64,000 nucleotides of DNA from Thermodesulfobacteriota bacterium (GTDB lineage Bacteria; Desulfobacterota; Desulfobacteria; Desulfobacterales; C00003060). The position numbers were made by a program, and so were the translations under genes. Positions 476 through 21,247 of the stretch are shown piece by piece (the stretch's first letter is position 1; every line of letters begins with the position of its first letter). The stretch lies in contig JAXHVD010000002.1 in assembly GCA_034189385.1 (NCBI GenBank), positions 185,893 to 249,892 of the forward strand, read 5' to 3'. The notes beneath the pieces are model-generated. The model was not told where the DNA came from and did not search any database. It saw only the letters and a program-made list of their open reading frames with translations.

Positions 476-1711
476 ATGAATATTACCAGAAGGCAATTTT
501 TGCACTACTGCACTGCCTCTGCCGCCGCCCTGGGCCTCAGCCAGATGGATCTCTTGAAGCTGGAAAAGGCCTTGGCGACACCGCAGACAGGCTGCGGCAG
601 CCCGACACCTTCGGTGATCTGGATGACTGGCCAGGCATGCTCCGGATGCCAGACATCGCTGCTGAACCGGGTGGTGGATACTGGTGGCACGGGCTACTAT
701 GATGCAGATTTGTTGAATGCCCTTACCGGCGGCGCATTTCCTCAAGGGGTCCCCAGCGATCCTATTCCGGAATTGAACGTGGTAAACGACGTGGCGGATC
801 TGCTGGTGGGCGATGCCGTTGGCACCCTGGTGCCGGCCATCACCCCAAGGGGCCTCACGTGGGCGCCATTTTCGAATGGTTACGTCACGCTGGAGTGGCT
901 GACCACGGTGAACGCCGGCGCCGGCGACATTAATGTCCAGCACATCAAGAACATCGTCAATACCGGCGGTTTTTTTCTGTTGCTGGACGGCTCGATTCCT
1001 GTGTTAGATGAGAATTTCTGTCTCGTCTTTGATAACGAGGTGAATGACGGTGTGGGAGGGACCAAGATCATTTCCAGCCTTCCGCTCGGGCCGATTACCC
1101 TGTCTGATGCCCTCAGGTGGATGATACCACAGGCAGCTGCCTGCATCAGCGTGGGCACATGTTCTGCCTTTGGAGGCATCCCGTCCGGCAAGAAGAACAA
1201 GACGGGCGCCATAGGGCTTCAGCAATTCATGAGCGATAATTCGCTTTCCAAGCCGTTGATCAATGTGCCCGGCTGTCCGCCTCATCCGGACTGGATCGTC
1301 TATCCGGTGGCACAGATCCTGATTCACGGCCTGCCGTCCGTACTGGCTCCAGGTTGGCTGGACGCCTGGGGCAGGCCAGCAGCGACTTTCGGCAATCAGC
1401 CCTTCTGCTCAGCGGCAGGTTCTTCCTGTGCGAACCACCCGTCCATGGGTGCGGGCTTTGCCCAACACCTGGGTGACGACGGTTGCCAGGGGAACATGGG
1501 CTGTAAGGGGCCCATCACCTTTGGGGATTGCCCTTCCCGTCAGAAGAACGTGTTCGACGACGGCACAGTGAACAACTGGTGTTCTGCCGGCTCCCGAGGG
1601 CCCAATATCGCCCAGGCCCGGCACGTTTGCCAGAGTTGTATTCAACCGGACTTTCCGGATCCACCAACATCCCCATTCTACGAGCCGGCATCCGGCGCTA
1701 GCCCGGTTTAA
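476..1711 (+). CDS. [NiFe]-hydrogenase small subunit, Tat-exported (group 1-like), 411 aa
   Basis: ATG at 476 after a GGGGGAGA RBS. Tat motif ITRRQFL. Proximal cluster motifs CSGC, VGTCSAFGG and VPGCPPHPDW; distal/medial region GC..MGCKGP..DCP..NNWC..CQSC. No C-terminal TM anchor. Confidence 0.95.
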   Translation: MNITRRQFLHYCTASAAALGLSQMDLLKLEKALATPQTGCGSPTPSVIWMTGQACSGCQTSLLNRVVDTGGTGYYDADLLNALTGGAFPQGVPSDPIPELNVVNDVADLLVGDAVGTLVPAITPRGLTWAPFSNGYVTLEWLTTVNAGAGDINVQHIKNIVNTGGFFLLLDGSIPVLDENFCLVFDNEVNDGVGGTKIISSLPLGPITLSDALRWMIPQAAACISVGTCSAFGGIPSGKKNKTGAIGLQQFMSDNSLSKPLINVPGCPPHPDWIVYPVAQILIHGLPSVLAPGWLDAWGRPAATFGNQPFCSAAGSSCANHPSMGAGFAQHLGDDGCQGNMGCKGPITFGDCPSRQKNVFDDGTVNNWCSAGSRGPNIAQARHVCQSCIQPDFPDPPTSPFYEPASGASPV

Positions 1712-1726
1712 AGGAGGTGAAATAGC

Positions 1727-4066
1727 ATGGCAACACTAAGAATAGCACCTGTTAATAGAATCGAAGGACATATGGATGTCTCGGCCACGACCGATGTGAA
1801 CAAGGTCGTCACTCACGTAGACAACGAGGTAGTCATGTTCCGCGGCCTTGAAAATGTCATGGTCAAGCGGGACCCGCGGGACGCACCCATTATCACGCCA
1901 CGTACCTGAGGCGTCTGACCGATTACACATGGCTCGGCGAGCCATAAAGCGGTTGGAGAGGCCTATGGGTTCAAGGTGGACTACTCTCACTCAAACACTG
2001 GTGGCTATCCAGGCGGACCTGCCGATTTTTGGGCAAACAACGCCAGCGGAACGCCCACCATCAACAAACTGTATGAGGATGTTCCGGCCAATGGCGTATT
2101 GCTCAGAAACCTGGCCATGGCGTCCAACTACCTCATGTCCCACATTCTGCATTTCTACCATCTGGTAGCCTTGGATTATGTGGATGTAAACGGCACGGGG
2201 CTGATCCCGAAAGGGTTCCTCTGCCCGAACTATGACAGTAACTACTACGCCAGGGGGATCGACCCTGTCTTGCAGACAGGCGGTCTCGGAGCGCCGGCGT
2301 ACACGGTCAACAATGCCCCTGTGGCGAACCCAAACGTTCCCGCAGGCGTTGCCGGCGATCTCACCCCCTACCTTGCAGGACAGTATGTGCGCGCCTTAAA
2401 GGCGCGCCGGATGGCCCATCAGCTCGGCGCCATCTTTGCGGGCAAGATGCCCCATGCCTCCTGTTTCACACCGGGGTGCGTAACGACTAAGTCGTACGAT
2501 CCCACGCCGGGCGGCTCTGACGCTGCCGTGGTGAACAAGGTTCACGAGCTACTCTACGGTGGGCCCGGATTTGACGCGACCGCCCCGGGTGCACTCACCA
2601 TGTCCAACCCCCATCCGGAAAGCCTCATGGGCTTTATCGGAAAGCCCAGCGATTTCTGGAATTGGGCTGCGGACGCCAGTGGATCCACAGGCGGTTTGGG
2701 CTTTGGCTTTGCGCCCGAGTTTCTCCCGCCATGGGCAGCCGCTGGTGCGGCAACCGCAGGACCACTGGCCGGCCTCCTTGGGTCAGGGCCGTGGACACAC
2801 GGCGGCACCTTCATGTTTGATACGGTGGCCGCTGCCCACTGCTTCCCCGAGTACTTCTGGATCGGTTCCGGCTACGGCCGTTACCTGGCCTGGGGGATCT
2901 TTGAGGGGGCAGCCCCAGGGCACCCGGACGAAAGGCTCCTGACCAGGGGTCGGGTCCACACGCCGCTGGCGCCCAATCCTCCGGGGACACCCTACGCATA
3001 TGACTACAAGCATCATGGTGCGGACCACTTGAAGGCCAAGGAGTTTACCACAAACTCCTGGTACTATGATCCCGCGGGGATCGACTACGGGCGGCACATG
3101 TGGAAGGGCAAGACCAAGCCGAGGTCCCGTGCGACCAAGCCCAGTGCCTACACCTTTGCCAAGACCCCGCGCTACAAAAACAATGCGAGCACGGCTGCCT
3201 GGGAGATTGCCGATCATCCCAACGCCGCCTATCTTCCCTACGAGGTGGGACCGCTTGCCAGGATGATATCCAATGCCTCTCTGCTGACCACACCGGGCGG
3301 CCCAGCCACAGCAGGCGAAGTGGTTGCCGTGGACAGCGGGGCCTTTGGGTGTTACTACCCGGGTATCCTCGCAGATGTGGATGCCGTTCTGGCTCCCGCA
3401 GGTGTCGGAGGACCATCGCCCATTGGCGTGTTCCCGGGCAGGGGAGTCAACATGACAGCGCACATCACCTTTCTGGCCGGTGCGGGCGTTTTCTACCTGC
3501 CGCCAAACGCCTTCTCACCACAGGTATTGGGGAACGGTTTCCACAGCGACTACATGGGCGGTGCCACGCTGGACAGGATCGCGGCCAGGACCCTGGAGAC
3601 GTACTACGTGGGGGCGCAGATGCTCAACTGGTTTAACGCCCTTAACCCAGCCGCCCAGTCCAACAAGACCCTGTTCTTTGACTATAGCGGCTTCACGAAC
3701 AAGACAGCGCCCAAGAAGGCGAAAGGCGCAGGCCTGACTGAGGCCCCAAGGGGCGCTCTCGGGCACTGGATCAAGATCGGCAAGCCTGACGGGACTTGGA
3801 AGGGCAAGACGGAAAGGTACCAGATCATCACGCCCACGGCCTGGAACATCAGCCCCAAGGATGCCGTTAATGCGACAGAGAAGACCCTGGGTCTGATGGG
3901 TCCCATTGAAAGGTGCATCTGGGGTACCCCTGTGGTGGCCGAATCAGAGCCGATCGAGGTGTTGAGGATTATCCATTCCTTTGACCCGTGCTGTGCCTGT
4001 ACGGTCCATCTGATGAACCCGAAAAAGGAGAAGGTGGCCGAGGTCACACTCGAAGCCCTCATGTAG
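1727..4066 (+). CDS. [NiFe]-hydrogenase large subunit read through two in-frame TGA codons (putative Sec61 and Sec64 in the L1 motif), 779 aa
   Basis: AAGGAGGT RBS. N-terminus PVNRIEGH...FRGLE...RDPRDA. ORFs 1727..1909 and 1976..4066 are in the same frame (249 nt offset), and the bridge reads RT-TGA(1907)-GV-TGA(1916)-PITHGSAS, matching RxCGxCPxxH. Also SHILHFYHL, EAPRGALGHW, TPTAWN, and L2 DPCCACTVH followed by an 18-aa extension. Confidence 0.93.
1917..1954 (+). promoter_or_regulatory. Putative bacterial SECIS element of the hydrogenase large subunit
   Basis: Upper stem ATGGCTC(1929-1935)/GAGCCAT(1939-1945) with a G-starting loop, beginning 10 nt after the second TGA. Lower stem GACCG(1917-1921)/CGGTT(1950-1954). 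Confidence 0.7.
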
Positions 4067-4107
4067 GAATCCATTCCAACTGGAAGGGAGTTCCTTATAA
4101 CCTTAAA

Positions 4108-4142
4108 AGAAAAGGGGCCATTTTATGGCCCCTTTTCTATTT
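4108..4142 (+). terminator. Rho-independent terminator after the hydrogenase structural genes
   Basis: AGAAAAGGGGCCAT-TTT-ATGGCCCCTTTTCT perfect hairpin with a T-rich tail. Confidence 0.8.
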
Positions 4143-4280
4143 GATCTCACAAAGCTGGCGCGACCCGCCCGTTGAGTCCTCGCAAGCCATATCGCCATAC
4201 CCATTGGAGACAGCCTGGTGTCCCAAGGAATGACTTACATAATTGGCGAGGTCGCCAAGAACGCCGGGGGGGAATATCGT

Positions 4281-4418
4281 AAATCCGAAATTCGAAAATC
4301 GAAGCACGAAACAAATTCGAATGACCAGAATTCCAATGAACGAAAAACTTCACAAACGTTTGAGGACATGATAATATTTAAATTTCTGTCATTGTTTCGG
4401 ATTTCGTGCTTCGAGTTT
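4281..4418. repeat. Intergenic imperfect inverted-repeat element
   Basis: Left arm AAATCCGAAATTCGAAAATCGAAGCACGAAACAA and right arm TTGTTTCGGATTTCGTGCTTCGAGTTT are complementary over short CGAAA-type units. Confidence 0.6.
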
Positions 4419-4555
4419 AATGTCTTGATGACTCTCCGCAGATCATGGATTACTTCCACGATACTGTTATGACGATGCGTGCGTTTTGGCGGGGAAACTG
4501 GTATACTATTAATTTTATACTTGGAACGAATCCCCGATGAACAAGGAGGCAATGA

Positions 4556-5026
4556 GTGGAGAGTGATAAGCCTATACTGGTTTTGGGCGTGGGCAACCTG
4601 CTGCTGAAAGACGAAGGGGTGGGCGTCCACGTGGCCCGAAAACTCATGGAGATGGACCTGCCGTCCCATGTGGAGGTCCTGGATGGCGGCACAGGCGGCT
4701 TTGATCTGCTGGATGAGCTCGAAGGGCGCAAAAAGGTGATCGTTGTGGATACGGCGCAGGCGGGAAAGCCTGCCGGGACCATGTATCGCATGACCACAGA
4801 GGACATTGAAAAGACGGAAAAGGCCCGCATCTCTCTCCATGAGATTGACATGACCGATCTGTTGAAGCTGGCCGACCTGTTCAAGATTGAAAAGCCAGAG
4901 ATCGTGATCATCGGCATTGAACCCAAGGACATGGAGAGCGCCAGCACGGAGCTTTCTCCGGAGATCGAGGCCCTCATTCCCAAGGTGATCGACGTTGTGC
5001 TCAAGGAAATAGGGGTAGATGAGTAG
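4556..5026 (+). CDS. Hydrogenase maturation endopeptidase (HybD/HyaD family)
   Basis: ILVLGVGNLLLKDEGVGVHV, VEVLDGGT, VIVVD, SLHE and IIGIEP motifs; adjacent to a large subunit with a cleavable C-terminal tail. Confidence 0.95.
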   Translation: MESDKPILVLGVGNLLLKDEGVGVHVARKLMEMDLPSHVEVLDGGTGGFDLLDELEGRKKVIVVDTAQAGKPAGTMYRMTTEDIEKTEKARISLHEIDMTDLLKLADLFKIEKPEIVIIGIEPKDMESASTELSPEIEALIPKVIDVVLKEIGVDE

Positions 5027-6917: not shown

Positions 6918-9848
6918 ATGCCCATATCCAGCAACTGGAAGAAGCATCTTTCGGTTCTTTTGCTCACGTTGACCGTGTTCGTCTTTGTGGGTGGTCGTAC
7001 TCTCCTACTGGCCGACGAGAACGATGCCCCCCACCAGACCCATCTGACCCTTGCCAGGGGCCCTGGCCTTGGAACAATTTGTACGCCTTGCCACACTGCC
7101 TCTCCTGGCATCTATGAGAATATCCGTTCCCCTTTGGCAGCTGCTTGCGTCACCTGCCACAGCCCTGGCGGACCATTTGATGGAGTGAATGACAGCGCTG
7201 TGGGCGCAGTGAACAATTGGGACAACTTGGGCGATCCAGGCGATGCTGCCGATTCCCTGATCTATGCATCATTTTATCCAGTAGATGTCAAACTGAAATC
7301 AGGAAAAGAAAAATGGTGTGCCACCTGTCACGATCAATCGGCCATGGGGGCGAACGTGATGGAGGAGTTCGAGGGATACGCAGACGACGCCGGCCTCCAG
7401 AGTAAATGGAAAGGCAAACAAGCTGCTCGCCCCGTGCAGTTGTGGTCTTACGTGCCGGACGAGCTGGGTGATTATGAGCTCGGCATCAGCGGCCAGTTTA
7501 TGCGCGTAAAACTCAAGTGGGACGGATCGGCCACCTATGGCTTGGTGAAAAGAAACTTTGCCGGCTCGCCTGAGGACCCTTATTTAGATCTAGGCGGTAA
7601 GGACTACTTCGGGTTTTACATGAAGGTGGAGAACAAGGGCAAGATCAAGAAGCTTAAGGTGAAGCTGAAGCTGATGGGGCAACTTACCTGGTGTACGGCC
7701 AAGTTTAAGGTGGACGCGGCAAGCGGCTTTGTGAATGACGTGTGGCATCTGGTCTTACTGCCCAGGGCGAGTTTTGACAACGACGCCTGTTTTGATGGGC
7801 TGGTAGACAAGATGAAGCTCGTTATCCTGGAGGGAAACCCTGGTGCGCCACCTGCGGTCACCTCTGTGTACTTTGATGCCTTTGGCTGTGACTTCACCGG
7901 AGCAAACGTGATAGGCGATAATGAGACCTACGGTTACTACAAGACAGGACACAAAGTCAACTGCACCCGCTGTCACGATCCCAGCAGCAAGCATATCGAT
8001 GGCAACAGGCGCCATGTCTTTGGATATATCAAGAAGAACGCAAATCCCACCAACTTCAGGTTTTATCCTGATCCTGCCAAACAGATGCAGCTTCCTTATA
8101 CGGAATATATTCCAGGGGCAGAGGGCTCCTTTGCCCTGTGCTATGGGTGCCATTTTGAGGAAAAGCTCATGGCGAACGAACCGGCAGAAAACCTGGAGAC
8201 CAATTTTACGGATGTAGGTTTCATCGCCGACGGGGCCCCTGATAATTTGCACTTATACCATGTAGGAGGGGAGCGCTATCCTGAAATCTCTGACCTAGAG
8301 GCCATCGTGTATCACGGCACATGCGTCCTTTGCCATGACCCCCATGGGCTGTTGAACCCAGCCATGGCCCGCAGAGAGATGGGCAATTTCATCTATTTTG
8401 ACCAGAATGGATGCGAAGTTGCCAAAGAGGAGTGGCATAACCCTGATGTAAATATGGGCGGTGCCCAGACAGAGGGATACGCCACCTATGAGCCTTTATG
8501 CTCTGAAGTTTGCCATATCAACGGGGTGCCACCGAATCCCGACTGCCAAGGGACCCATCCCTATATCAACTCTATGGGGATGGATGGGTGGTATACGCGG
8601 GGGTATGAAAGAGTCCCTCACAAACCAGGAACGGAGTTTGATCTTGACTGTTTTTTCTGCCACACGGCTGGACCTTCCCATGCTACCCACATCCAGACCA
8701 ATCCAAAGGGGCCAGCGCCCCTGGCCTGTGAAGACTGCCACCTTATAAACGAAGAAACCGTTTTTCAGATGGACAGGATGGTCCAACTGGATGTCTGCAA
8801 CCCCTGCCATAGCCCTGATGGTGCCTTTGATGGGCTAGATGACACGGAGTTTGGAGCAATAAACAACTGGGATAACGGCGTCTACGACTACGAGTCCGGC
8901 GGGAACAGCTTCAGGCCTGGAAAAGAGCAGTGGTGTGTGAGCTGCCATGACGATGGCACCTCCCTTTGCGACGGTGTGAGCGCTCCTGATGTGGGCATCT
9001 TCTACACCGGTGGTCACGGGAGACCCGGTGCCAGCGTGGAATGTCTGAGCTGCCATGATGCGACACGCACCCACATCGATGGAGAGGCCAGGACATACGC
9101 CTTTGACTCCCCATCCTATGATCCCGGTCTATCTGGTGTCACATACGCCTCGGGCTATCGGCTGCTGTATGTGGGTGGGAACGTCCCGCTCATGATCCCG
9201 GCTGACGTGACGATTACTTTTGACTGCACGAGTCAAGCCATCAAAGATAACGCCTTTAAGCTGTGCTTCAACTGTCATGATTCGTACAAGTTGTTCGATA
9301 ACACCCCTGGAGACGGCCTGGATACCAACTTCAAGCCGAGTCTGCCCGATCCTCCAATGGGTTACTCCTATGCCTATGGCAGTGAGTGGGACAACAATCA
9401 CCGCGCCCACCTGTTGAGCTTTGCCGGGCCATACTGGGATTCAGATTGGGACACTGGCACCATTGGCGGAACGGGCGCTGACGGACGCGAGTCTATGATC
9501 ACGTGCTCCTCCTGTCACAATGTCCACGGCGCTGCTGCTGCCCAGGCAGGCTGGACCAATGAGGCCATGATCAGGGACGGAAGCCTCGCAGGAAGGACCG
9601 GATATGGCTTCAGCTACGTGGTTGAGGATGTGGCGAGCGGCGGCTACCCTATGGTGACCTCCACCGGTGCCACTCAGGCAAACAGCGTTGGTGCTGTGTT
9701 CAGAAACAATACGGACAACATGTGCGGAGGGTCCTATTGTCACGATAGTCCCACTTCACCGCCTGGCAGCAGTTATGATGCCACGGGCATTGGCTGGGGG
9801 ACCTATCTAGAATACTACCGGCCCTGGCAGGACTATTTGGGAAATTAA
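6918..9848 (+). CDS. Large secreted multiheme cytochrome c (13 CxxCH plus one CX3CH and one CX4CH) with an inserted heme-free beta domain
   Basis: Signal peptide. Motifs CTPCH, CVTCH, CATCH, CTRCH, CYGCH, CVLCH, CSEVCH, CFFCH, CEDCH, CNPCH, CVSCH, CLSCH, CFNCH, CSSCH, CGGSYCH. Confidence 0.92.
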   Translation: MPISSNWKKHLSVLLLTLTVFVFVGGRTLLLADENDAPHQTHLTLARGPGLGTICTPCHTASPGIYENIRSPLAAACVTCHSPGGPFDGVNDSAVGAVNNWDNLGDPGDAADSLIYASFYPVDVKLKSGKEKWCATCHDQSAMGANVMEEFEGYADDAGLQSKWKGKQAARPVQLWSYVPDELGDYELGISGQFMRVKLKWDGSATYGLVKRNFAGSPEDPYLDLGGKDYFGFYMKVENKGKIKKLKVKLKLMGQLTWCTAKFKVDAASGFVNDVWHLVLLPRASFDNDACFDGLVDKMKLVILEGNPGAPPAVTSVYFDAFGCDFTGANVIGDNETYGYYKTGHKVNCTRCHDPSSKHIDGNRRHVFGYIKKNANPTNFRFYPDPAKQMQLPYTEYIPGAEGSFALCYGCHFEEKLMANEPAENLETNFTDVGFIADGAPDNLHLYHVGGERYPEISDLEAIVYHGTCVLCHDPHGLLNPAMARREMGNFIYFDQNGCEVAKEEWHNPDVNMGGAQTEGYATYEPLCSEVCHINGVPPNPDCQGTHPYINSMGMDGWYTRGYERVPHKPGTEFDLDCFFCHTAGPSHATHIQTNPKGPAPLACEDCHLINEETVFQMDRMVQLDVCNPCHSPDGAFDGLDDTEFGAINNWDNGVYDYESGGNSFRPGKEQWCVSCHDDGTSLCDGVSAPDVGIFYTGGHGRPGASVECLSCHDATRTHIDGEARTYAFDSPSYDPGLSGVTYASGYRLLYVGGNVPLMIPADVTITFDCTSQAIKDNAFKLCFNCHDSYKLFDNTPGDGLDTNFKPSLPDPPMGYSYAYGSEWDNNHRAHLLSFAGPYWDSDWDTGTIGGTGADGRESMITCSSCHNVHGAAAAQAGWTNEAMIRDGSLAGRTGYGFSYVVEDVASGGYPMVTSTGATQANSVGAVFRNNTDNMCGGSYCHDSPTSPPGSSYDATGIGWGTYLEYYRPWQDYLGN

Positions 9849-9898: not shown

Positions 9899-10042
9899 TC
9901 ACCGCAAAGGCGCAAAGAGCACAGAGTCTATTTTGCTTTATGTTTTCCGCTGAGACGGCGGAAAACATAAGAAGCCATCGCCTATGGCGAATGTCTTGGC
10001 GTTCTTTGCGTCTCAAGCGAGTGCATGCGAGCGGGCGGTGAG
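9899..10042. repeat. Dispersed palindromic intergenic element (second copy at ~32822-32927)
   Basis: TTTTCCGCTGAGACGGCGGAAAA hairpin (inverted in the second copy) plus a shared GCGTTCTTTGCGTCT..AGCGA...GAGCGGGCGGTG segment. Confidence 0.55.
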
Positions 10043-10064
10043 TCTATGTCTGAAAAGAGAGTTT

Positions 10065-12362
10065 ATGTCTAAAAAGAGAAGGGAAAAGCATACGATAACG
10101 CATAGAAAAATGTTGCTCTCGGCAGCAACGGTGCTTTTTGTCTTGGCCGCAGCAGGGGCCTTGTGGGCCTTGTGCCCCCATCCTTATAACCGGCCCACGC
10201 CGACGATGGACTACGTGTCCCAAGAGATCGGCATGTTTGATGGCATATACTCGGAGTACACGGAGCAGGACTGCAGGGGCTGCCACGAGGATAGTGAGGA
10301 TGCAGTGAAAAACCGGCACCACGAGACGCCCAGGGGGGACATTTGTGTGGACTGCCACGCCGAAGACCAGTCTGGCGATAAGATAATAATAAGCAACTGC
10401 CTGGGTGGCGAGTCCTGGCAATGCCACGCCACCTATGACAACGGCTGGCACCACGCCACGGATTGGGCATTTAACGAGAATTGTGTCAAATGCCACAACC
10501 CGAACCTGATTGATGAGATCACGGAATTTTATGACTTCGCAACCTTGCCGCCGTCGCTCGTGGCGCCCACGCCCTTTTCCTGCGAGAACTGCCACTGGGA
10601 GCAGGCCATCATGGATCAGCCCGGCGACGCCTGCAATCCAGGCCACCCTTCCACTTATGAGCATGTAGACAGTTTCGGGAACCTTGTGGGGTACCATGAA
10701 TATTCCCGGTCTATCTATGACAGCCGCCTGAACCACCACATGGGAGGGGAGGGCTTTGCCCTCGGTCAGTGCTACCAGTGCCACTCCCTAGAGCCGACTG
10801 ATCCAAGTTGGGACCCCTACAATCCAGAGCTTATCCGTTACTGCGAGAGGTGCCACTCCATAGAGAGGCTCCATGGGATAGAAGCCCACGTGTCAACACA
10901 GGCCGGTTGGGCACCCGTTGGGTTCCATTGGGACCCTGTAGGCAGCGTGCCGGACCCGGGTAACATTGATTGCACCGACCTTGCGCCCACGTATTACCGC
11001 ACGGGCGATGACGGTACTGGCAATGTGGAGCGACTGGACCCTTATGGTGATCCTTTTGATCCTTCCCGTTACTGGGGGCAAGTGCCTTGCAGCCCTCCCA
11101 GGACGGAGGGCTTCTACACGGCCGACGAGCACTGCCTGGCATGCCACGCAGCCGGGCTGCCGCCCTGGGTCCCGGACCCTCCTCCAGCCGTTCCATGGCT
11201 TGACACGGGCCTTGACGGCATCCATCCCAGCCACGGAAGCCCTGTGATGCTTGTCGCCCTAAGGGGAGGCAACTTTGGCGATGAGCACATCTTGGGAAGG
11301 GACGTGCAAGTGGGGATAGATCCGGGAACGGGCTGGGTCTGGATTGACGCACCCATTTATTCCTGGAGTGACACCCTGATTGAGTGGCGGCTGACTGCCG
11401 GTCTGCTGGATCCCGGAAACTACAAGGTGCGGGTGGTGACCGAGGTGGGCAAGAGCAATAGGCGCAATTTTGTAGTAAAAGATCACCCCAAGCTGCTGAG
11501 TGCCAATCCGCAAAATGGACCATGCGACACCTGGATCACCCTTTCCGGGGAATTCGGCAACCAGCAGCAGAAAATGTTTGCTGACGGCTATCACGGTGTC
11601 CATCACGTGGTGGAATTTGAGGGCCCGATTACGACCTATACGGCGCTCAGCTATGCGAACTGGAGCGATACCAGCATTGACGTGATGATTGGAAAGGGCT
11701 TCTTAGACGAAGTAGATACCTGTGGGGAGCCCGTGGACGGGCGCAATTTTGTCCGCGATGATGGCACGGCGGTTCCTTCCGGTTCCTGCACGGGCCATAT
11801 CTGTCCGGAAGAGCCCAAGGTCATAAGCTGCAACGGGATGGCCCTTGGCACCTATGAGATCTGTGTAAAGGCCATCTACTATGGAGATGACGATGGGAGC
11901 GGCACCTTGACTTGCGGCGATATCGTCTTTCACGTGGACAAGAGCGATCCTTTAGACTTTGAGCTCACCAACACCCCCTATATTAACAAGGTCAAGCCCA
12001 AGGAAAGCGAGCGGTGGTTTGAGGAGGATTGCACTTCGGCGTATCCAGGATGCTACGTCATGCACAAGAACAAGATCAAGATCATCGGTGGAAACTTTGG
12101 TCCAACGCAAGGACCTGGTGATGAGGTGCGCTTTGGAAGCCTGGTACACTACACGAAGTACTGCGGCGGCAACACGGAGAAAGGAGAGCTCCTGCCAGTC
12201 TCTTTGTGGAGCAACACCAAAATCAAGGTCAAGTTGAAGGTTGCGGCCGAGTGGGAAGGCAAGAGCAAGTATATCTGGGTCTCTAAAGGCGGTCAGTGCA
12301 GCAATCCAGTGCCGATGGGGATCTTAGAGCCCACCAGCCTGTGCGATCAGTCGTGTCCCTAA
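10065..12362 (+). CDS. omcZ: OmcZ-like octaheme cytochrome c precursor with C-terminal IPT/TIG-like domains (paralog 1)
   Basis: 7 CxxCH plus CLGGESWQCH. Motif order matches G. sulfurreducens OmcZ as I recall it (QxxGxxD..CxxCH..RHH; HHxT..CxxCH; PxP..CExCH; HH; IRxCExCH..LH). C-terminal GGNFG...WS(D/N)T beta-sandwich repeats. Start chosen at ATG 10065. Confidence 0.8.
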   Translation: MSKKRREKHTITHRKMLLSAATVLFVLAAAGALWALCPHPYNRPTPTMDYVSQEIGMFDGIYSEYTEQDCRGCHEDSEDAVKNRHHETPRGDICVDCHAEDQSGDKIIISNCLGGESWQCHATYDNGWHHATDWAFNENCVKCHNPNLIDEITEFYDFATLPPSLVAPTPFSCENCHWEQAIMDQPGDACNPGHPSTYEHVDSFGNLVGYHEYSRSIYDSRLNHHMGGEGFALGQCYQCHSLEPTDPSWDPYNPELIRYCERCHSIERLHGIEAHVSTQAGWAPVGFHWDPVGSVPDPGNIDCTDLAPTYYRTGDDGTGNVERLDPYGDPFDPSRYWGQVPCSPPRTEGFYTADEHCLACHAAGLPPWVPDPPPAVPWLDTGLDGIHPSHGSPVMLVALRGGNFGDEHILGRDVQVGIDPGTGWVWIDAPIYSWSDTLIEWRLTAGLLDPGNYKVRVVTEVGKSNRRNFVVKDHPKLLSANPQNGPCDTWITLSGEFGNQQQKMFADGYHGVHHVVEFEGPITTYTALSYANWSDTSIDVMIGKGFLDEVDTCGEPVDGRNFVRDDGTAVPSGSCTGHICPEEPKVISCNGMALGTYEICVKAIYYGDDDGSGTLTCGDIVFHVDKSDPLDFELTNTPYINKVKPKESERWFEEDCTSAYPGCYVMHKNKIKIIGGNFGPTQGPGDEVRFGSLVHYTKYCGGNTEKGELLPVSLWSNTKIKVKLKVAAEWEGKSKYIWVSKGGQCSNPVPMGILEPTSLCDQSCP

Positions 12363-12463
12363 TAGCCTTTCCTTTTCCCTCACTATTACAACGGTTCAGT
12401 GGCTGCCGTGAAATGATGAAGTGATGGAATGGCGGAATGATGGGTTCAGAGGAAGAAAAAGAA

Positions 12464-14095
12464 ATGATGTGCAATGGTCTCTCCCGCTTTTACCCCATTA
12501 TTCCATTATTCCATTATTCCACCACCCCAACGATTCCCACTAAAGCAAAGCCTCCAATCTCATTTTACCTTGTTTGGCTCCTTGCGTTCATGCTGTCTCT
12601 TACGGGCTGCCGTCACCAATCCGGGGGGACGAAGGAGGCTGTTGCGCAGACAGATCCAAAGGTCGTGGCCATGATCGGAGATGAGGCAATCATGAGGCAG
12701 GACCTTGAGAACGCCATGAAGCGGTTACCGCCGCGCAGAGGGGAAGGATATCGTGGCAGGGTCCTTGATCGTTTAATAAGAGTAAGGGTTTTTTCTGAGG
12801 CAGCAAAAAGGGCGGGACTGGACAAGGATCCAGAGACCCAGGGGGATCTGGAGCGGGCTCAACATGAGATCTTAGCCCGATCTTTTATTGCCAGGCATGT
12901 GGACCAGCAGGCAGTGCCGTCAGAAAAAGAGTTGAACCAGTTCTACCTGGCACAGAAGAAGCAGTTCATGATCCCCGAAGGGGTATTGATGCAGCATATC
13001 GTCGTCAAGAAAAAAGAAGAGGCCGAAGCCATATTGGGGAAGTTGAAGGAGGGGGCCTCTTTTGAGGAGCTGGCTAGGAAAAGATCGATTGCCCCTTCAT
13101 GGAAAAGTGGAGGGCTCTGTGGGTGGCTCTTTAAGGGGAGGATGGAGCCGGAACTGGAGAAGGTGGCCTTTGAACTGGACAAAGCGGCACTGAGTGACGT
13201 CATAGAGACGAACAAGGGTTTCCAGATTATCAAGGTGTTAGAGAGACGGGACAAGAGAGAGCTGGGTTTTGAAGAGGCAAAGGCAAAGATATCCCATACA
13301 TTATTGGCGAAAAAGAAGAGGCAGCTTATTCATCAGTACTACAAAGAGGCAAAGGTAAAGAGAAATCCTACTGAGGCGGGCGTGCTGGCCAAAGTGGGAG
13401 ACGATGCCTTGACGGGAGAGAGCCTTGCGCCCATTTTGGCCAAGGTGTCGGAAAAGGAGAGAGGAGCGATCCGGCGCCGATGGATCGACTACTTCATAGA
13501 AAAAGAGGTCTTCTCAAAGGAAGCGAGAAAGGTGGGGCTCGAAAACGATCCAGAGGTGGCCTATGAACTTGAGAGAAGAAGGGAAGAGGTCCTGGCCGAT
13601 GCCTTTGCTAAACAGTTTATCACTCAGAAATACCCAATCAGTGATAGGGACATAGCGGGGTATTATCAAGCCCACCTGGAAGAGTTCCAGAGACCGTTGA
13701 GGATGAGGGTGAGATCCATACGGGTGGAGACGAGAAAAGAGGCAGAAGAGATCTTAGAAGCGCTACATGAGGGGGCTTCCTTTGAACGTCTGGCCATGAA
13801 AGAGTCCATTCACCCTGCAGCCCCCCTGGCGGGAAATATTGGCTGGTTCGGTAAAGGAGAAAAGGACGCTGCACTGGAAAGGGCCGCCTCTTCACTGGAA
13901 AAGGGGCAGATCAGCGACATCGTAAAGACAGGGGCTGGCTACGAGATACTAAAACTGACGAACAAAAAGGGCGGTGAGGTCAGGCCCCTTGAAGAGGTGG
14001 AGAAAGGGATAAGGATAAAATTGACGCAGCAAAGATTCGAGCGGGAAAGGCAGCATTATTATCAGGAGGCAAGGGTGAGAATCTTGGACTCATAG
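12464..14095 (+). CDS. PpiC/parvulin-type peptidyl-prolyl isomerase with two PPIase domains, probable lipoprotein
   Basis: HIVVK..EAEAIL..GASFEELARKRS...GG..GW, repeated. Lipobox-like LSLTGC. Start codon uncertain (12437 or 12464). Confidence 0.88.
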   Translation: MMCNGLSRFYPIIPLFHYSTTPTIPTKAKPPISFYLVWLLAFMLSLTGCRHQSGGTKEAVAQTDPKVVAMIGDEAIMRQDLENAMKRLPPRRGEGYRGRVLDRLIRVRVFSEAAKRAGLDKDPETQGDLERAQHEILARSFIARHVDQQAVPSEKELNQFYLAQKKQFMIPEGVLMQHIVVKKKEEAEAILGKLKEGASFEELARKRSIAPSWKSGGLCGWLFKGRMEPELEKVAFELDKAALSDVIETNKGFQIIKVLERRDKRELGFEEAKAKISHTLLAKKKRQLIHQYYKEAKVKRNPTEAGVLAKVGDDALTGESLAPILAKVSEKERGAIRRRWIDYFIEKEVFSKEARKVGLENDPEVAYELERRREEVLADAFAKQFITQKYPISDRDIAGYYQAHLEEFQRPLRMRVRSIRVETRKEAEEILEALHEGASFERLAMKESIHPAAPLAGNIGWFGKGEKDAALERAASSLEKGQISDIVKTGAGYEILKLTNKKGGEVRPLEEVEKGIRIKLTQQRFERERQHYYQEARVRILDS

Positions 14096-17102: not shown

Positions 17103-19427
17103 ATGAGTAAGAGGACATGTGTATTACTTTTGGGGGCGGTGCTGCTGGTTCTTGCTGCGGCTGGAACCGTGGGGGCCCTGAATGCTGCCTACAATCGCCC
17201 GAATCCCACCATGGACTACGTGCCCCAAGACAGGGGGATCTACGATACCATGTACTGGGAATACAGCGGTGATTGCGGTTGCCGGAGCTGCCACGGAAAT
17301 AGCACGGCAGACAGACACCACTATACGCCCATTGTTTTAAGGGACAAGTTGTGTACGGTATGCCATCCCACATGTACCCCAGGTACTCCAGATTGTGAGA
17401 ACGGGGTCTTGATCATCAGGGATTGCACGACCTCCGGTTGCCACAGTTGGGCTGATGCAGGACCAAAGGATGAAAAAGGAACCTTTGATCCTGCCAACGA
17501 CAAAAACGGTTGGCATCACAACACGGATATGGCTGCCGCCGAGAACTGCACCGGCTGCCACAACCCAAACCTGGTTGAAGAGATCAGTGACTTTAGAGAC
17601 CACCAGATGTATCCGCCAACGGTAGTGACTCCTTCGCCCTTTTCTTGTGAGAACTGCCATTGGGAGCAAGCCCTGGTGGCCGGCACGGGTGATTGCGATA
17701 ATCCGGGACATCCATCGACCTATGACCACGTAGATAAGTGGGGAAACACTATAGGCTTCTATGAGTACAACAAGCCCATCTTCGGAAACTTTGATACCCA
17801 CCACATGGGATTCAAGGGCGAGGTGGCCCAAGACTGCTCCAAGTGCCACTCTCAAGATCCTGACAACCCAAGTTGGGATCCCTATAACCCGGAGCTTGGA
17901 CGCTATTGTCAGATATGCCACAGCATGCGCACCCTGCATACCATAGATCCTCATGTGGACGTCCATCCTGGGTGGTTTCCTGTCGGGTTCCATGCAAACG
18001 ACAACGATCTTGACGGCTTGATCGATGAAGATGATATCGACAGCCTAGACAATGATGGTGACGGCTATGTGGACGAAGATCCACCGGGTACGCTCGGCCC
18101 CGACCCATTTGTCTATGCCACTTGGGATGCCTCAAGCCCTCCCGGGGTTTGTGATCCTGAGCAATACCCGGGCTACACCGCTGATATGCAGTGCTGGGGA
18201 TGCCACGCCGACAATGTGCCTCCTTATGACGGAGACATTGGCTGTCAGCCTTGGATTGATACTGGTGCAGATGGCTTAATCCCCATTGCCGGTAGCTGTG
18301 GTCTGCAGGTGACCATCAGAGGCGGTTGCTTCGGCGATGAACAGATCGTGGGCCGGTCAGTGCAATTAAAAGTCGCGCCCCTCACTTGGATAGAGATGCC
18401 AGTGCACGCCTGGACAGACAACGTGATCGAGTGGGAGGTGCCGTGCTGGACCTTAGCCGCTGGAAACTACAAGGTACGCGTGGCCACGGAAGAAGGAAAC
18501 AGCAATGCTTTAAACTTTACCGTAAAGGACCATCCCACGTTGACCGGTATCAGTCCCGCTGCAGGAGGCTGCGGCACGTCGATCACGCTGACTGGAAGCG
18601 GCGGGTTTGCGCCCTCTAGAAAGACAGCGCCTTCGGTGGCAGATCCCACGAATTCATACTATGGCATCTACCACACGGTAGACTTTGTCTCCTCGCAAGG
18701 CACCTATACGGTCAACAATGACATGTTTACCGCATGGAGCGACACGAGCGTCACGCTCACGCTCCAAAAGGTCTTCGTGGACGAGGTAGATACCTGCGGC
18801 GACCCCACGGACAAGCGAAACTTCGTCCGCGATACTGGCGCCACGGTTCCTGCCGGTGCTTGTAACGGCCATGTCTGTCCTGAAGAGCCTAAGGTGGACA
18901 ACTGCGAGTGTCTGGGCCTTGGTGTCTATCAAGTGTACATGAAGGCCATCTACTACGGTGACGAAGACGGCAGCGACACCTTGACCTGCGGCGATATCAT
19001 CTTCCAGGTCGAAAAGAGTGATCCCGTGCAGTTTGAGCTTGTCCAGGCCCCATTTATTAACAAGGTCAAACCCAACCCGTCTGAGCGGTTTTTCTACGAG
19101 GACTGCGGCGGCGGTTGCATTATGCTGCACAAGAACATTGTCAAGATCATCGGCTACAACTTTGGCCCAACGCAACAAGCCGGTGACGAGGTGCGCCTTG
19201 GGAGCATGACCCAGTACGACGATAATTGTACCGGTGTCAATCCCGACGCTGGCAAACCCCTGCCGGTCAAGATGTGGAGTGCGACCAAGATCAAGGTCAA
19301 GCTGAAGGGCAAACCGGAATGGGACGGCAAGACCAAGTATCTCTGGGTCAAGAAAGCCGGTGTATGTAGCGCCCCAATGCCCGTAGGGATCTTGGATCCC
19401 ATCTCTCTGTGCGGCATGTGTCCATAA
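17103..19427 (+). CDS. omcZ: OmcZ-like octaheme cytochrome c precursor with C-terminal IPT/TIG-like domains (paralog 2)
   Basis: Signal peptide. Motifs CRSCH, CTVCH, CTTSGCH, CTGCH, CENCH, CSKCH, CQICH, CWGCH. PIFGNFDTHH resembles OmcZ PIFSNQDTHH (recalled). Colinear with 10065..12362. Confidence 0.82.
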   Translation: MSKRTCVLLLGAVLLVLAAAGTVGALNAAYNRPNPTMDYVPQDRGIYDTMYWEYSGDCGCRSCHGNSTADRHHYTPIVLRDKLCTVCHPTCTPGTPDCENGVLIIRDCTTSGCHSWADAGPKDEKGTFDPANDKNGWHHNTDMAAAENCTGCHNPNLVEEISDFRDHQMYPPTVVTPSPFSCENCHWEQALVAGTGDCDNPGHPSTYDHVDKWGNTIGFYEYNKPIFGNFDTHHMGFKGEVAQDCSKCHSQDPDNPSWDPYNPELGRYCQICHSMRTLHTIDPHVDVHPGWFPVGFHANDNDLDGLIDEDDIDSLDNDGDGYVDEDPPGTLGPDPFVYATWDASSPPGVCDPEQYPGYTADMQCWGCHADNVPPYDGDIGCQPWIDTGADGLIPIAGSCGLQVTIRGGCFGDEQIVGRSVQLKVAPLTWIEMPVHAWTDNVIEWEVPCWTLAAGNYKVRVATEEGNSNALNFTVKDHPTLTGISPAAGGCGTSITLTGSGGFAPSRKTAPSVADPTNSYYGIYHTVDFVSSQGTYTVNNDMFTAWSDTSVTLTLQKVFVDEVDTCGDPTDKRNFVRDTGATVPAGACNGHVCPEEPKVDNCECLGLGVYQVYMKAIYYGDEDGSDTLTCGDIIFQVEKSDPVQFELVQAPFINKVKPNPSERFFYEDCGGGCIMLHKNIVKIIGYNFGPTQQAGDEVRLGSMTQYDDNCTGVNPDAGKPLPVKMWSATKIKVKLKGKPEWDGKTKYLWVKKAGVCSAPMPVGILDPISLCGMCP

Positions 19428-19570: not shown

Positions 19571-21247
19571 ATGAACATGAGATGGATGAAACGTTTTGAA
19601 GCCAATATCTGGCAGCGGTTGCGCCTGATGGCTTCAAAGCACACCTCGCCCCCTGTATTTCCGTGTCTTCATAATATTCCAACGATTTCTACTGGCACGA
19701 AGCCCCTGATTTTATGTTCCCTCATTCTGTGCATGGCTCTGTTTTTTGTTGTGGGTTGCCGTGAGGAGGCAGCCGATAGGTCGGCCCTTTTGGGAAAGAG
19801 CAAGTCAACGGTCGTGGCCTTGATCGGTGAGGAGGAGATCACAAGAGAGGATCTTGAACAGGATCTGAAGCAGATACCGGAGCAGAAACATCAGGCTCTG
19901 CAGAAGAAGATCCTGGACGATTTGATCGAGGCCAGGGTCTTTGCCAGGGAGGCAAGAAAGGCGGGTCTTCATGAAGACCCTGAGATTATGGAATCGTTGA
20001 AAAAGACGACAAAGGAAACGTTGGCAAGAAATTTTGTCAGGAGACATGTGGACAAAGAGGCTGAGCCCTCAGAAGAGGAACAACGGAAGTATTACGACGA
20101 ACACATGGACCAGTTCCTGGTCCCCGATGGTGTCATGCTTCGGCAGATCGTGCTGAAGGAAAAGGAGCAAGCCGAGGCGGTCCTAAAAGAGCTGAAGGAG
20201 GGGGCCCCCTTCGAGGAGCTGGCCAGAAAAAGATCGATTGGCCGCGCATGGAAGACGGGGGGGCGCCTTGGCTGGCGCTTTAAAGGGAGGATGGACCCGG
20301 CACTCGAAGAGGTGGCGTTTGGCCTGGAAAAGAGCGAGCTCAGTGACATTATTAAGACAGGGGAAGGGTATGAGATCATCGAGGTGTTGAACAAAAGCGA
20401 TCAAGGTCAGAGGCCCTTTGAAGAGGCAAAGCCTCACATACGCACCGGCCTGTTTAGGGACAAAAAGAACGCCCTTGTCCATGAGTTATACAAAGAGGCC
20501 GGGGTGGACATCGATCCCGCTGAAGATGGCGTGCTGGCCAAGGTAGGAGACGATGCCTTAACGGAAGAGACCCTTGCCCCTATCCTAGCCAAGGCTTCAG
20601 AAGAGCAACAAAAAGAGGTCAGGCGGCGATGGGTTCAGTATTTCATAGACACAACCGTCTTCTCAAAGGAGGCAAGAAAGATCCGCCTTGAAGACGATCC
20701 CGAGGTGGCCCGGGAGATCCGAAGAAAAACAGACCGGATACTGGCCACGGCCTTTCGGAAGAGGTTTATCGGGGAAAAAACGCAGATCAGCGACAAGGAG
20801 ATAGCCGACTATTACCAGTCCCACCCTGGGCAATTTACGACTCCTCCTCTGGTAAGGGTAGAAGCCATCTTGGTCGAGACCAGGCAGGAGGCTGAAGAGA
20901 TCGTGAAAGAACTAAAGGCCGGTGCCGGTTTTGCGGCCTTGGCTGCCAGGGAGTCGCTCTACCCTAATGCGGCTTCAAGGGCCGGAGAGATTGGCTGGTT
21001 TGGCAAGGGAGAAAGGGACCCTGCTCTGGAAAAGGTAGCCTTCGCCATGGAGCCTGGGAAGATCAGCGACATCATCAAGACAGAGGCAGGCTTCGAGATC
21101 ATCAAATTGATGGCAAAGAGAGGCGGGGAAACTAGGCCCTTTGATGAAGTAAAGCAGGACATAGAGATGAAGTTGATGGCGCAAAAACTAGCAGAAGAAA
21201 AGGAGCGTTATTACAAGGAGGCTGGGGTCAAAATCTTAGGCTTATAA
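19571..21247 (+). CDS. PpiC/parvulin-type peptidyl-prolyl isomerase with two PPIase domains (paralog 2), probable lipoprotein
   Basis: Colinear with 12464..14095; FFVVGC lipobox-like motif; FEELARKRS, GEIGWFGKGE. Confidence 0.88.
   Translation: MNMRWMKRFEANIWQRLRLMASKHTSPPVFPCLHNIPTISTGTKPLILCSLILCMALFFVVGCREEAADRSALLGKSKSTVVALIGEEEITREDLEQDLKQIPEQKHQALQKKILDDLIEARVFAREARKAGLHEDPEIMESLKKTTKETLARNFVRRHVDKEAEPSEEEQRKYYDEHMDQFLVPDGVMLRQIVLKEKEQAEAVLKELKEGAPFEELARKRSIGRAWKTGGRLGWRFKGRMDPALEEVAFGLEKSELSDIIKTGEGYEIIEVLNKSDQGQRPFEEAKPHIRTGLFRDKKNALVHELYKEAGVDIDPAEDGVLAKVGDDALTEETLAPILAKASEEQQKEVRRRWVQYFIDTTVFSKEARKIRLEDDPEVAREIRRKTDRILATAFRKRFIGEKTQISDKEIADYYQSHPGQFTTPPLVRVEAILVETRQEAEEIVKELKAGAGFAALAARESLYPNAASRAGEIGWFGKGERDPALEKVAFAMEPGKISDIIKTEAGFEIIKLMAKRGGETRPFDEVKQDIEMKLMAQKLAEEKERYYKEAGVKILGL

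Follow-up and report, generated by a model that had tools for sequence, protein, structure and literature searches.

To our knowledge, everything that structures, spectroscopy and electrochemistry have revealed about selenium in hydrogenases comes from a single position, the terminal ligand in the C-terminal motif of the large subunit, where rapid reactivation following contact with oxygen and high H2 production are attributed to selenium. Here we analyze a 64,000-nt stretch of DNA (the window; positions 185,893 to 249,892, forward strand, of contig JAXHVD010000002.1, assembly GCA_034189385.1) from a Thermodesulfobacteriota bacterium, carrying a [NiFe] hydrogenase large-subunit gene in which both cysteine positions of the N-terminal nickel-binding motif (L1) are almost certainly recoded UGA codons in a real gene kept by selection. 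Selenocysteine (Sec, U) in L1 has been predicted in another class of enzymes: in September 2026, UXXU-type Group 4 [NiFeSe] hydrogenases were described in silico (Takano, Inoue, Aono, Ochi, Mihara, Front Microbiol, PMC13582414), and that paper counts 47 Group 4 sequences with N-terminal Sec, divided among CXXU (27), UXXC (4) and UXXU (16) forms. The same paper left Groups 1-3 out of its survey. It places the Sec of Group 1 and Group 3 variants in the C-terminal motif, the exceptions being three CXXU sequences that Baltazar 2011 had noted, and it also credits Baltazar 2011 with N-terminal CXXU in two Group 1 sequences. Two selenoproteome reviews, in their excerpted passages, list hydrogenase subunits with C-terminal UxxC only.

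A large-subunit gene with two in-frame UGA codons

Read across two UGAs, the large-subunit gene comprises 779 codons and occupies window positions 1727–4066, ending in a TAG stop (4064–4066); the gene and all of the motifs and signals described in this and the next two sections lie on the forward strand. A ribosome-binding site (AGGAGG, 1712–1717), recognized by sequence inspection, is placed 9 nt ahead of the ATG. In the frame 1 translation, the sole in-frame stops are TGA at 1907–1909 (UGA-1, residue 61) and TGA at 1916–1918 (UGA-2, residue 64), and open reading frame (ORF) calling under translation table 11 accordingly breaks the gene into a piece of 60 aa (1727–1909) and another of 696 aa (1976–4066) opening with GTG. 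An earlier note, made from the sequence without database searches, had described two in-frame fragments separated only by these TGAs and had warned that gene callers would split such a gene; translation and ORF calling agree with it in every detail.

The residues around the UGA pair read IITPRT-U-GV-U-PITHGSAS, and the L1 motif R-T-U-G-V-U-P-I-T-H (1901–1930) aligns to RICGVCTLVH of 3myr_B, which puts UGA-1 at the position of the terminal nickel ligand and UGA-2 at that of the ligand bridging nickel and iron, roles that the earlier note had assigned in the same way and that match PMC13582414. The C-terminal motif (L2), D-P-C-C-A-C-T-V-H at 3983–4009, is all cysteine, just as the note had stated, with TGC (3989–3991) at the first ligand, TGT at the second, and an extra cysteine adjoining the first ligand (codon 3992–3994, residue 756). 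Past the motif histidine, the sequence continues for 18 residues (4010–4063), a tail defined from the sequence and from alignment to mature chains; since the solved mature chains stop at the aligned histidine (3myr_B: ...CIACAVH), this extension is presumably removed by a maturation endopeptidase.

A contig from the probable source run matches 1400–1968 with 0 differences, and one assembled from wetland DNA in an independent run matches 1805–1935, also with 0 differences, so the UGA site is not an assembly slip. A further contig from an RNA library spans both TGAs with 14 differences; contigs cannot show expression, and we do not count it as evidence of transcription.

Conservation and selection of the UGA pair

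Tabulating TGA versus TGY (Y, C or T) at the two L1 positions of homologs, a check that the earlier note had proposed, we found TGA at both positions in 9 of 31 loci from related genomes (the window's own locus, L022, and eight others), with TGY/TGA in 7, TGY/TGY in 14 and no motif in 1. Among 80 metagenome loci retrieved with the family alignment, 35 have TGA/TGA (28 encoding U-G-V-U, 6 U-S-V-U and 1 U-A-V-U) and 37 encode Cys/Cys, the others being one AGA/TGA locus and seven that fall short of the motif, with single-TGA forms in 0 of 80. Orthologs of the large subunit are 57–90% identical to it; in the closest group (at least 51% identity, L057-L079), 20 of 23 are UxxU and 3 of 23 CxxC. In clade A, which includes the window gene, all 22 distinct sequences have TGA at both positions. 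Cys-type relatives have TGT or TGC there (L052, L072, L073, L079), and TGY/TGY is likewise found in P0011, P0037, P0042, P0046 and P0052. No CxxU or UxxC form was seen within the family of oversized enzymes to which the window gene belongs; because single-TGA forms are absent although one mutation away, both UGAs appear to be selected as such.

The C-C-A-C form of L2 occurs in every Sec-type clade-A locus with a readable L2 except L071 (D-x-C-C-A-C-T-V-H in L021-L026 and L057-L069), whereas Cys-type relatives have C-L-A-C, C-L-S-C or C-I-A-C instead and none has C-C-A-C; the exceptional L071 pairs U-A-V-U with C-I-A-C.

For 13 distinct full-length clade-A genes, the median ratio of nonsynonymous to synonymous substitution rates (dN/dS) was 0.104 over the 64 codon columns that precede UGA-1 and 0.198 over the 947 that follow the UGAs, with dS around 1.5. 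This comparison of the two sides had also been proposed beforehand, and since dN/dS indicates purifying selection on either side, both flanking pieces are, on this sequence evidence, translated in frame and maintained. The simplest alternative is that translation terminates at UGA-1 to give a 60-residue peptide and a separate 696-residue protein starting at GTG 1976, or that the locus is a pseudogene or an assembly error. Such a two-piece product is what table 11 gene callers output, and database entries for the relatives mostly lack their N-termini; yet the 696-residue piece would retain only two of the four metal ligands, purifying selection acts more strongly on the 60 upstream codons, which stay in frame, than on the remainder of the gene, the TGAs persist at the dS given above, independent assemblies agree, and the hyp and endopeptidase genes near the hydrogenase are intact. 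We give this alternative next to no weight, and a pseudogene, an assembly error and a two-piece product are, from the sequences compared, excluded for practical purposes. The earlier argument that two chance nonsense mutations at exactly these codons are implausible is borne out by the unbroken TGA/TGA conservation in clade A and the low dN/dS.

To place the Sec and Cys forms, we built a FastTree phylogeny of 90 rows from complete genes only, trimmed at the C-terminal histidine, with partial genes and the window duplicate excluded. The oversized enzymes form a single clade of 40 rows (27 UxxU, 12 CxxC and 1 RxxU; local support 99), apart from the ordinary-sized sequences, and Sec and Cys forms are mixed in each of its three subclades. 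The UxxU label requires 9 changes on the tree, 7 of them forced by supported branches; the root is the midpoint, and the number of Sec/Cys switches is approximate. Because at least seven switches between Sec/Sec and Cys/Cys have left no single-Sec form in view, the tree suggests that the two selenium atoms are functional only as a pair. One related genome, G028, holds both a Sec/Sec copy (C96, L023) and a Cys/Cys copy (C1, L052/L054) of the oversized hydrogenase (57% identical to the query), an arrangement resembling the pairs of isoenzymes that selenium regulates in Desulfovibrio and Methanococcus. The AGA/TGA locus (L080, 1115–1126), from the subclade with GRI-U-GV-U-LVSH, has an arginine codon in place of TGA at the first ligand; this single observation may reflect a variant, an error or a copy that is no longer functional.

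Few species representatives contain the family, which was reached mainly through metagenome contigs. A single-protein scan of genome contigs produced one relative only, 400 genomes drawn evenly across the phylum contained no further member at 1e-45, and a genus-wide search returned no loci beyond those already found. Among the 66 closest database proteins, most are without at least the 60 N-terminal residues and 5 of 66 cover at least 99% of the query, with most relatives recorded as N-terminally truncated proteins of about 640–740 aa. One of the truncated entries, P0047, has the C-C-A-C motif and a source label of Planctomycetota metagenome-assembled genome, which hints that the Sec-type enzyme crosses phyla.

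A conserved hairpin downstream of the UGA codons

A hairpin resembling a selenocysteine insertion sequence (SECIS) is found at 1929–1945, with a 7-bp stem (1929–1935/1939–1945) and a GGC loop (1936–1938); it begins 10 nt past UGA-2 and 19 nt past UGA-1. It has the expected features of a stem-loop just 3′ of a UGA and a G in the apical loop, and the 66-nt stretch that contains it folds with a z-score of −2.88. All 7 stem pairs are intact in 20 of 20 clade-A sequences, and codons +7 to +13 (CAT GGC TCG GCG AGC CAT AAA, encoding His, Gly, Ser, Ala, Ser, His and Lys) are invariant across the 22 distinct sequences of the clade, while neighboring conserved residues use 2–4 codons.

In a sister clade (about 32% identity, QR-x-U-[GS]-V-U-PIGH), a different hairpin stands at the corresponding place. 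Compensatory changes were observed in two of its pairs (UA to AU in 4 of 10 sequences and UA to GC in 3 of 10), one pair has a one-sided change, and no pair is broken; because the compensatory changes alter the encoded amino acids, the pairing itself is conserved there. A hairpin of this kind is absent from the Cys-type relatives L072, L093, L105 and L116.

Selenocysteine machinery and decoding of the UGA codons

The window genome (a 4.13 Mb assembly, 90% complete) encodes the genes named for checking in the earlier note: selB (370 bits), selA (612 bits), selD (389 bits) and one tRNA-Sec (72 bits, 98 nt, anticodon UCA) with discriminator base G73, of the type charged by seryl-tRNA synthetase. 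Five further UGVU-bearing genomes of the genus were checked, and all five have selB and tRNA-Sec. The genome's own selD (G000:C29:10803-11726, L009) has an in-frame TGA, in the context S-G-U-A-A-K, and this UGA is likewise trailed by a hairpin with a G-rich loop. Genome-wide reassignment of TGA is ruled out, since more long ORFs end in TGA than in any other stop (606 of the 1533 with at least 300 aa). Candidate second Sec-type tRNAs in four relatives, scored by the Rfam model RF01852 (50.2 bits), were rejected when ARAGORN showed each to be an ordinary 77-nt tRNA-Trp(CCA). These tRNA-Trp genes (G028:C15:295-371, G011:C82:355-431, G006:C61:362-438 and G036:C43:434-510) exceed the gathering score of 47, making the cross-match a trap in counting Sec tRNAs.

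Homologs, selection, hairpin and Sec machinery all support the view that the two fragments form a single hidden large-subunit gene with both L1 cysteines recoded as UGA, most likely for Sec, as had been supposed from the sequence alone. We regard Sec at both residues 61 and 64 as probable and as the best reading of the data. Several observations weigh against it. The clade-A hairpin shows no covariation of its own because it never varies, and the evidence there is the invariance of synonymous sites. In the third subclade (GRI-U-GV-U-LVSH), a palindrome picked out by eye differs from the minimum-energy fold. Rfam gave no match for the whole window at the gathering threshold, nor for 1850–2050 at E values up to 10, although this says little because bacterial SECIS elements are poorly covered there. 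The optimal spacing between UGA and SECIS in E. coli fdhF is about 11 nt, and the 19 nt of UGA-1 is longer; nor do we know of any hydrogenase in which one SECIS has been shown by experiment to direct Sec insertion at two codons 9 nt apart. An AlphaFold2 model of the large subunit is uninformative on the geometry of the site, with a predicted local distance difference test score (pLDDT) below 50 at residues 38–76 because most alignment rows are without the N-terminus.

The spacing argument would favor an enzyme in which one UGA is decoded as Sec and the other is suppressed by a near-cognate tRNA or mostly terminates translation, with low yield and one selenium atom, since the spacing is unequal and only that of UGA-2 comes near the E. 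coli canon. We think this quite improbable: both codons are TGA in every distinct clade-A sequence and in 35 metagenome loci, and the family is devoid of CxxU and UxxC, each one point mutation away.

A further possibility concerns which amino acid is delivered. A UGA followed by a SECIS can be read as cysteine by a Sec-shaped tRNA charged with cysteine, according to PMC13582414, where the type known as tRNA-ReC (selC*), charged by cysteinyl-tRNA synthetase, is reported from roughly 56% of the genomes that encode UXXU Group 4 hydrogenases and the caveat is stated. Were both UGAs recoded through SECIS and SelB with cysteine placed at either or both of them, maturation would yield an all-Cys enzyme of the ordinary kind or a mixture of forms. 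Within the genus, G011, which has the same UGVU gene (L026), contains a 92-nt tRNA-Cys(GCA) that has discriminator U73 and an extended variable arm (L141:3081-3172, C4), and it adjoins a second SelB-like ORF (718 aa, 321 bits, C4:42125-44047); the pair looks like a selC*/selB* (tRNA-ReC) system reading UGA plus SECIS as cysteine. This caveat is real for the family, and at 90% completeness such a tRNA in the window genome may have been missed. On the other side, ARAGORN found 42 tRNAs in that genome, including a single Sec-shaped tRNA (the UCA, G73 gene above) and one ordinary 75-nt tRNA-Cys, and no second Sec-shaped or Cys-charging look-alike tRNA is among these 42 in the 90%-complete assembly. 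One SelB scores above the cut-off, BLASTN of the G011 long-arm tRNA against the genome returned chance matches of at most 18 nt, and of the six same-genus UGVU genomes examined (G000, G028, G006, G036, G011 and G030), G011 alone has another full SelB with a tRNA beside it. We consider cysteine insertion unlikely in the window genome, somewhat less so than the one-selenium alternative. The earlier reading of the codons as Sec thus stands as the best supported, and no longer as the sole one, given the putative SelB-dependent, Cys-inserting tRNA in a genome of the same genus.

Type of hydrogenase

With both UGAs read as Sec, the large subunit matches Pfam PF00374 (NiFeSe_Hases) at 282 bits (cut-off 25.8, E 1.2e-83), and both large-subunit ligand motifs, RxCGxCxxxH and DPCxxCxxH, are recognizable, with U at both N-terminal cysteine positions. 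By sequence, solved Group 1 large subunits are about equidistant from it, at roughly 150–167 bits; among the matches listed, rows 1–54 of 60 are periplasmic or membrane-bound two-subunit enzymes (69–167 bits), and the F420-, NAD- and methyl-viologen-reducing chains (Group 3 type) score at most 62 bits and match with the N-terminus only. The AlphaFold2 model (pLDDT 78, predicted template modeling score 0.86) served only for a fold search, in which the top matches were the [NiFeSe] large subunits of Desulfomicrobium baculatum and Desulfovibrio vulgaris (template modeling score by target 0.79) and all structural matches listed were two-subunit, uptake-type enzymes. No Group 4 chain is among the matches listed in either the sequence or the structure search.

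The small-subunit gene (476–1711, forward strand) encodes 411 aa from the ATG at 476, within an ORF that opens at GTG 413, and its product matches Pfam Oxidored_q6 and NiFe_hyd_SSU_C. It carries a twin-arginine translocation (Tat) export signal, MNITRRQFL, with MNITRRQFLHYCTASAAALGLSQ aligned to the Tat leader of 2wpn_A, and this periplasmic [NiFeSe] enzyme is its best solved relative (174 bits, other small subunits scoring at most 89 bits). The large subunit falls short of the NCBIfam cut-offs for HysA (NF045518, 235.9 versus 780 bits) and NiFeSe_hydrog (NF033181, 323.2 versus 600 bits), and the first C-terminal cysteine, where canonical HysA has Sec, is encoded here by TGC. From these sequence comparisons, the enzyme is best described as a Tat-exported hydrogenase of Group 1 character that, at 779 aa, is oversized and has the periplasmic [NiFeSe] enzymes as its nearest kin; the Group 1 placement follows the small-subunit signal and the closest relatives.

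Neighboring genes

Behind the large-subunit gene lies a hairpin resembling an intrinsic terminator (4114–4136, forward strand; GGGGCC, loop ATTTTAT, GGCCCC, then TTTT), found by sequence inspection, followed by a gene for a maturation endopeptidase of the HycI/HybD family (4556–5026, forward strand; PF01750 at 4625–5008, 106.6 bits). On the contig, hypE, hypB, hypF, two radical-SAM genes and hypD are located upstream of the small subunit. Farther downstream on the forward strand are two genes for large multiheme c-type cytochromes, at 6918–9848 (976 aa) and 9984–12362 (792 aa), with matches to Pfam Paired_CXXCH_1, Cytochrome_C7 and MtrC/MtrF. ORFs bearing CxxCH motifs also flank the hydrogenase genes at L067, L069, L081 and L099. 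Neither a cytochrome b gene nor a C-terminal membrane anchor was seen at the hydrogenase locus, and for this reason the enzyme looks like a soluble periplasmic hydrogenase giving electrons to c-type cytochromes; from gene order, the multiheme cytochromes would be its candidate electron acceptors.

A third very large multiheme c-type cytochrome gene is present at 17103–19427 (774 aa), and two SurA-like peptidyl-prolyl isomerase genes (12437–14095 and 19571–21247) are interleaved with the three cytochrome genes. This cluster may be an extracellular or periplasmic electron-transfer module. At 25216–30066, an ORF of 1616 residues contains 21 MopE-like putative copper-binding repeats (PF11617, E 5.9e-227).

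Proposed maturation and implications

On the reading that both codons specify Sec, the region 476–5026 would constitute an intact exported two-subunit [NiFe] hydrogenase together with its own maturation protease. One stem-loop would recruit SelB-Sec-tRNA(Sec) twice in succession, for UGAs three codons apart, placing Sec at the terminal nickel ligand (residue 61) and at the nickel-iron bridging ligand (residue 64), with both C-terminal ligands remaining cysteine. Hyp-dependent metal insertion would then be followed by loss of the 18-residue tail from the large subunit, which would be exported to the periplasm on the Tat signal of the small subunit and there would exchange electrons with multiheme cytochromes c, as in the [NiFeSe] and [NiFe] enzymes of sulfate reducers. 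On balance we favor this wider picture, with somewhat less assurance than Sec insertion itself: a periplasmic Ni-Fe center bound by selenium at a terminal and at a bridging position, both on the side opposite to that in characterized [NiFeSe] enzymes, a single SECIS serving both UGAs, and an oversized, cytochrome-linked lineage that has switched at least seven times between Sec/Sec and Cys/Cys.

If true, natural selenium at the L1 terminal ligand and at a bridging ligand would help to tell which of the effects attributed to selenium depend on its position, and the enzyme would be a natural counterpart to engineered Cys-to-Sec variants of E. coli hydrogenase. Obtaining two Secs from a single SECIS would require a second delivery of SelB-Sec-tRNA at the same hairpin within three codons. 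The genes are systematically mis-called as truncated, and for that reason surveys of hydrogenases in sediments and wetlands would undercount or misclassify them.

Comparison with known hydrogenases

The nearest characterized system is Hys, the periplasmic Group 1a [NiFeSe] hydrogenase of Desulfomicrobium baculatum and Desulfovibrio vulgaris Hildenborough (PDB 1cc1, 4kl8, 2wpn, 5jsh), with which the window enzyme shares an origin in bacteria of sulfate-reducer type and a two-subunit, Tat-exported, soluble build as well as a C-terminal tail and a dedicated endopeptidase, its own selenium being predicted from sequence. They differ in that Hys has one Sec, at the first C-terminal cysteine, whereas the window enzyme has cysteine there and two UGAs in the N-terminal motif; its large subunit is also about 280 residues longer (779 versus about 490–500) and its small subunit about 100 longer. 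The Group 1 CXXU sequences have Sec at the bridging position of the N-terminal motif. We found this type (RSCGV-U-TYTH, about 549 aa, with an all-Cys C-terminal motif) in 7 of the 31 genome loci (L032, L034, L037, L039, L041, L042 and L043), from seven genomes in other families of the same order; unlike the oversized family, these have one UGA, are of ordinary size and sit on a different branch of the tree.

The double UGA has a counterpart in the Group 4 UXXU type, for which PMC13582414 describes two UGAs at the CXXC motif, one SECIS-like hairpin downstream whose apical loop contains a G, genomes that also carry selABCD, and Sec and Cys forms scattered patchily over the tree, all of which recur here. 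Those enzymes are, however, membrane-bound, energy-converting and cytoplasm-facing, whereas the window enzyme is predicted to be Tat-exported and has its best matches in Group 1; and single-Sec forms occur among them, in contrast to the oversized family, where the 80 metagenome loci include only UxxU (35) and CxxC (37) forms. This precedent already takes away much of the surprise. The earlier note knew of no natural enzyme of this kind, which holds for characterized enzymes and fails for in silico descriptions, where the Group 4 UXXU type had been reported. A full-text literature search, with Baltazar 2011 and supplements outside its range, found UXXU joined with hydrogenase only in PMC13582414.

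Laboratory precedents are the Cys-to-Sec variants of E. coli hydrogenase (Evans et al. 2021, 2024; the latter PMC11212049), in which, as summarized in PMC13582414, activity was retained but altered. Like the window enzyme as predicted, they place Sec at nickel-ligand cysteines of a Group 1 enzyme, but as engineered single substitutions they are neither natural nor double. Within the literature searched, UxxU in an exported hydrogenase of Group 1 type is thus unreported, and it would represent [NiFeSe] chemistry that is both N-terminal and doubled.

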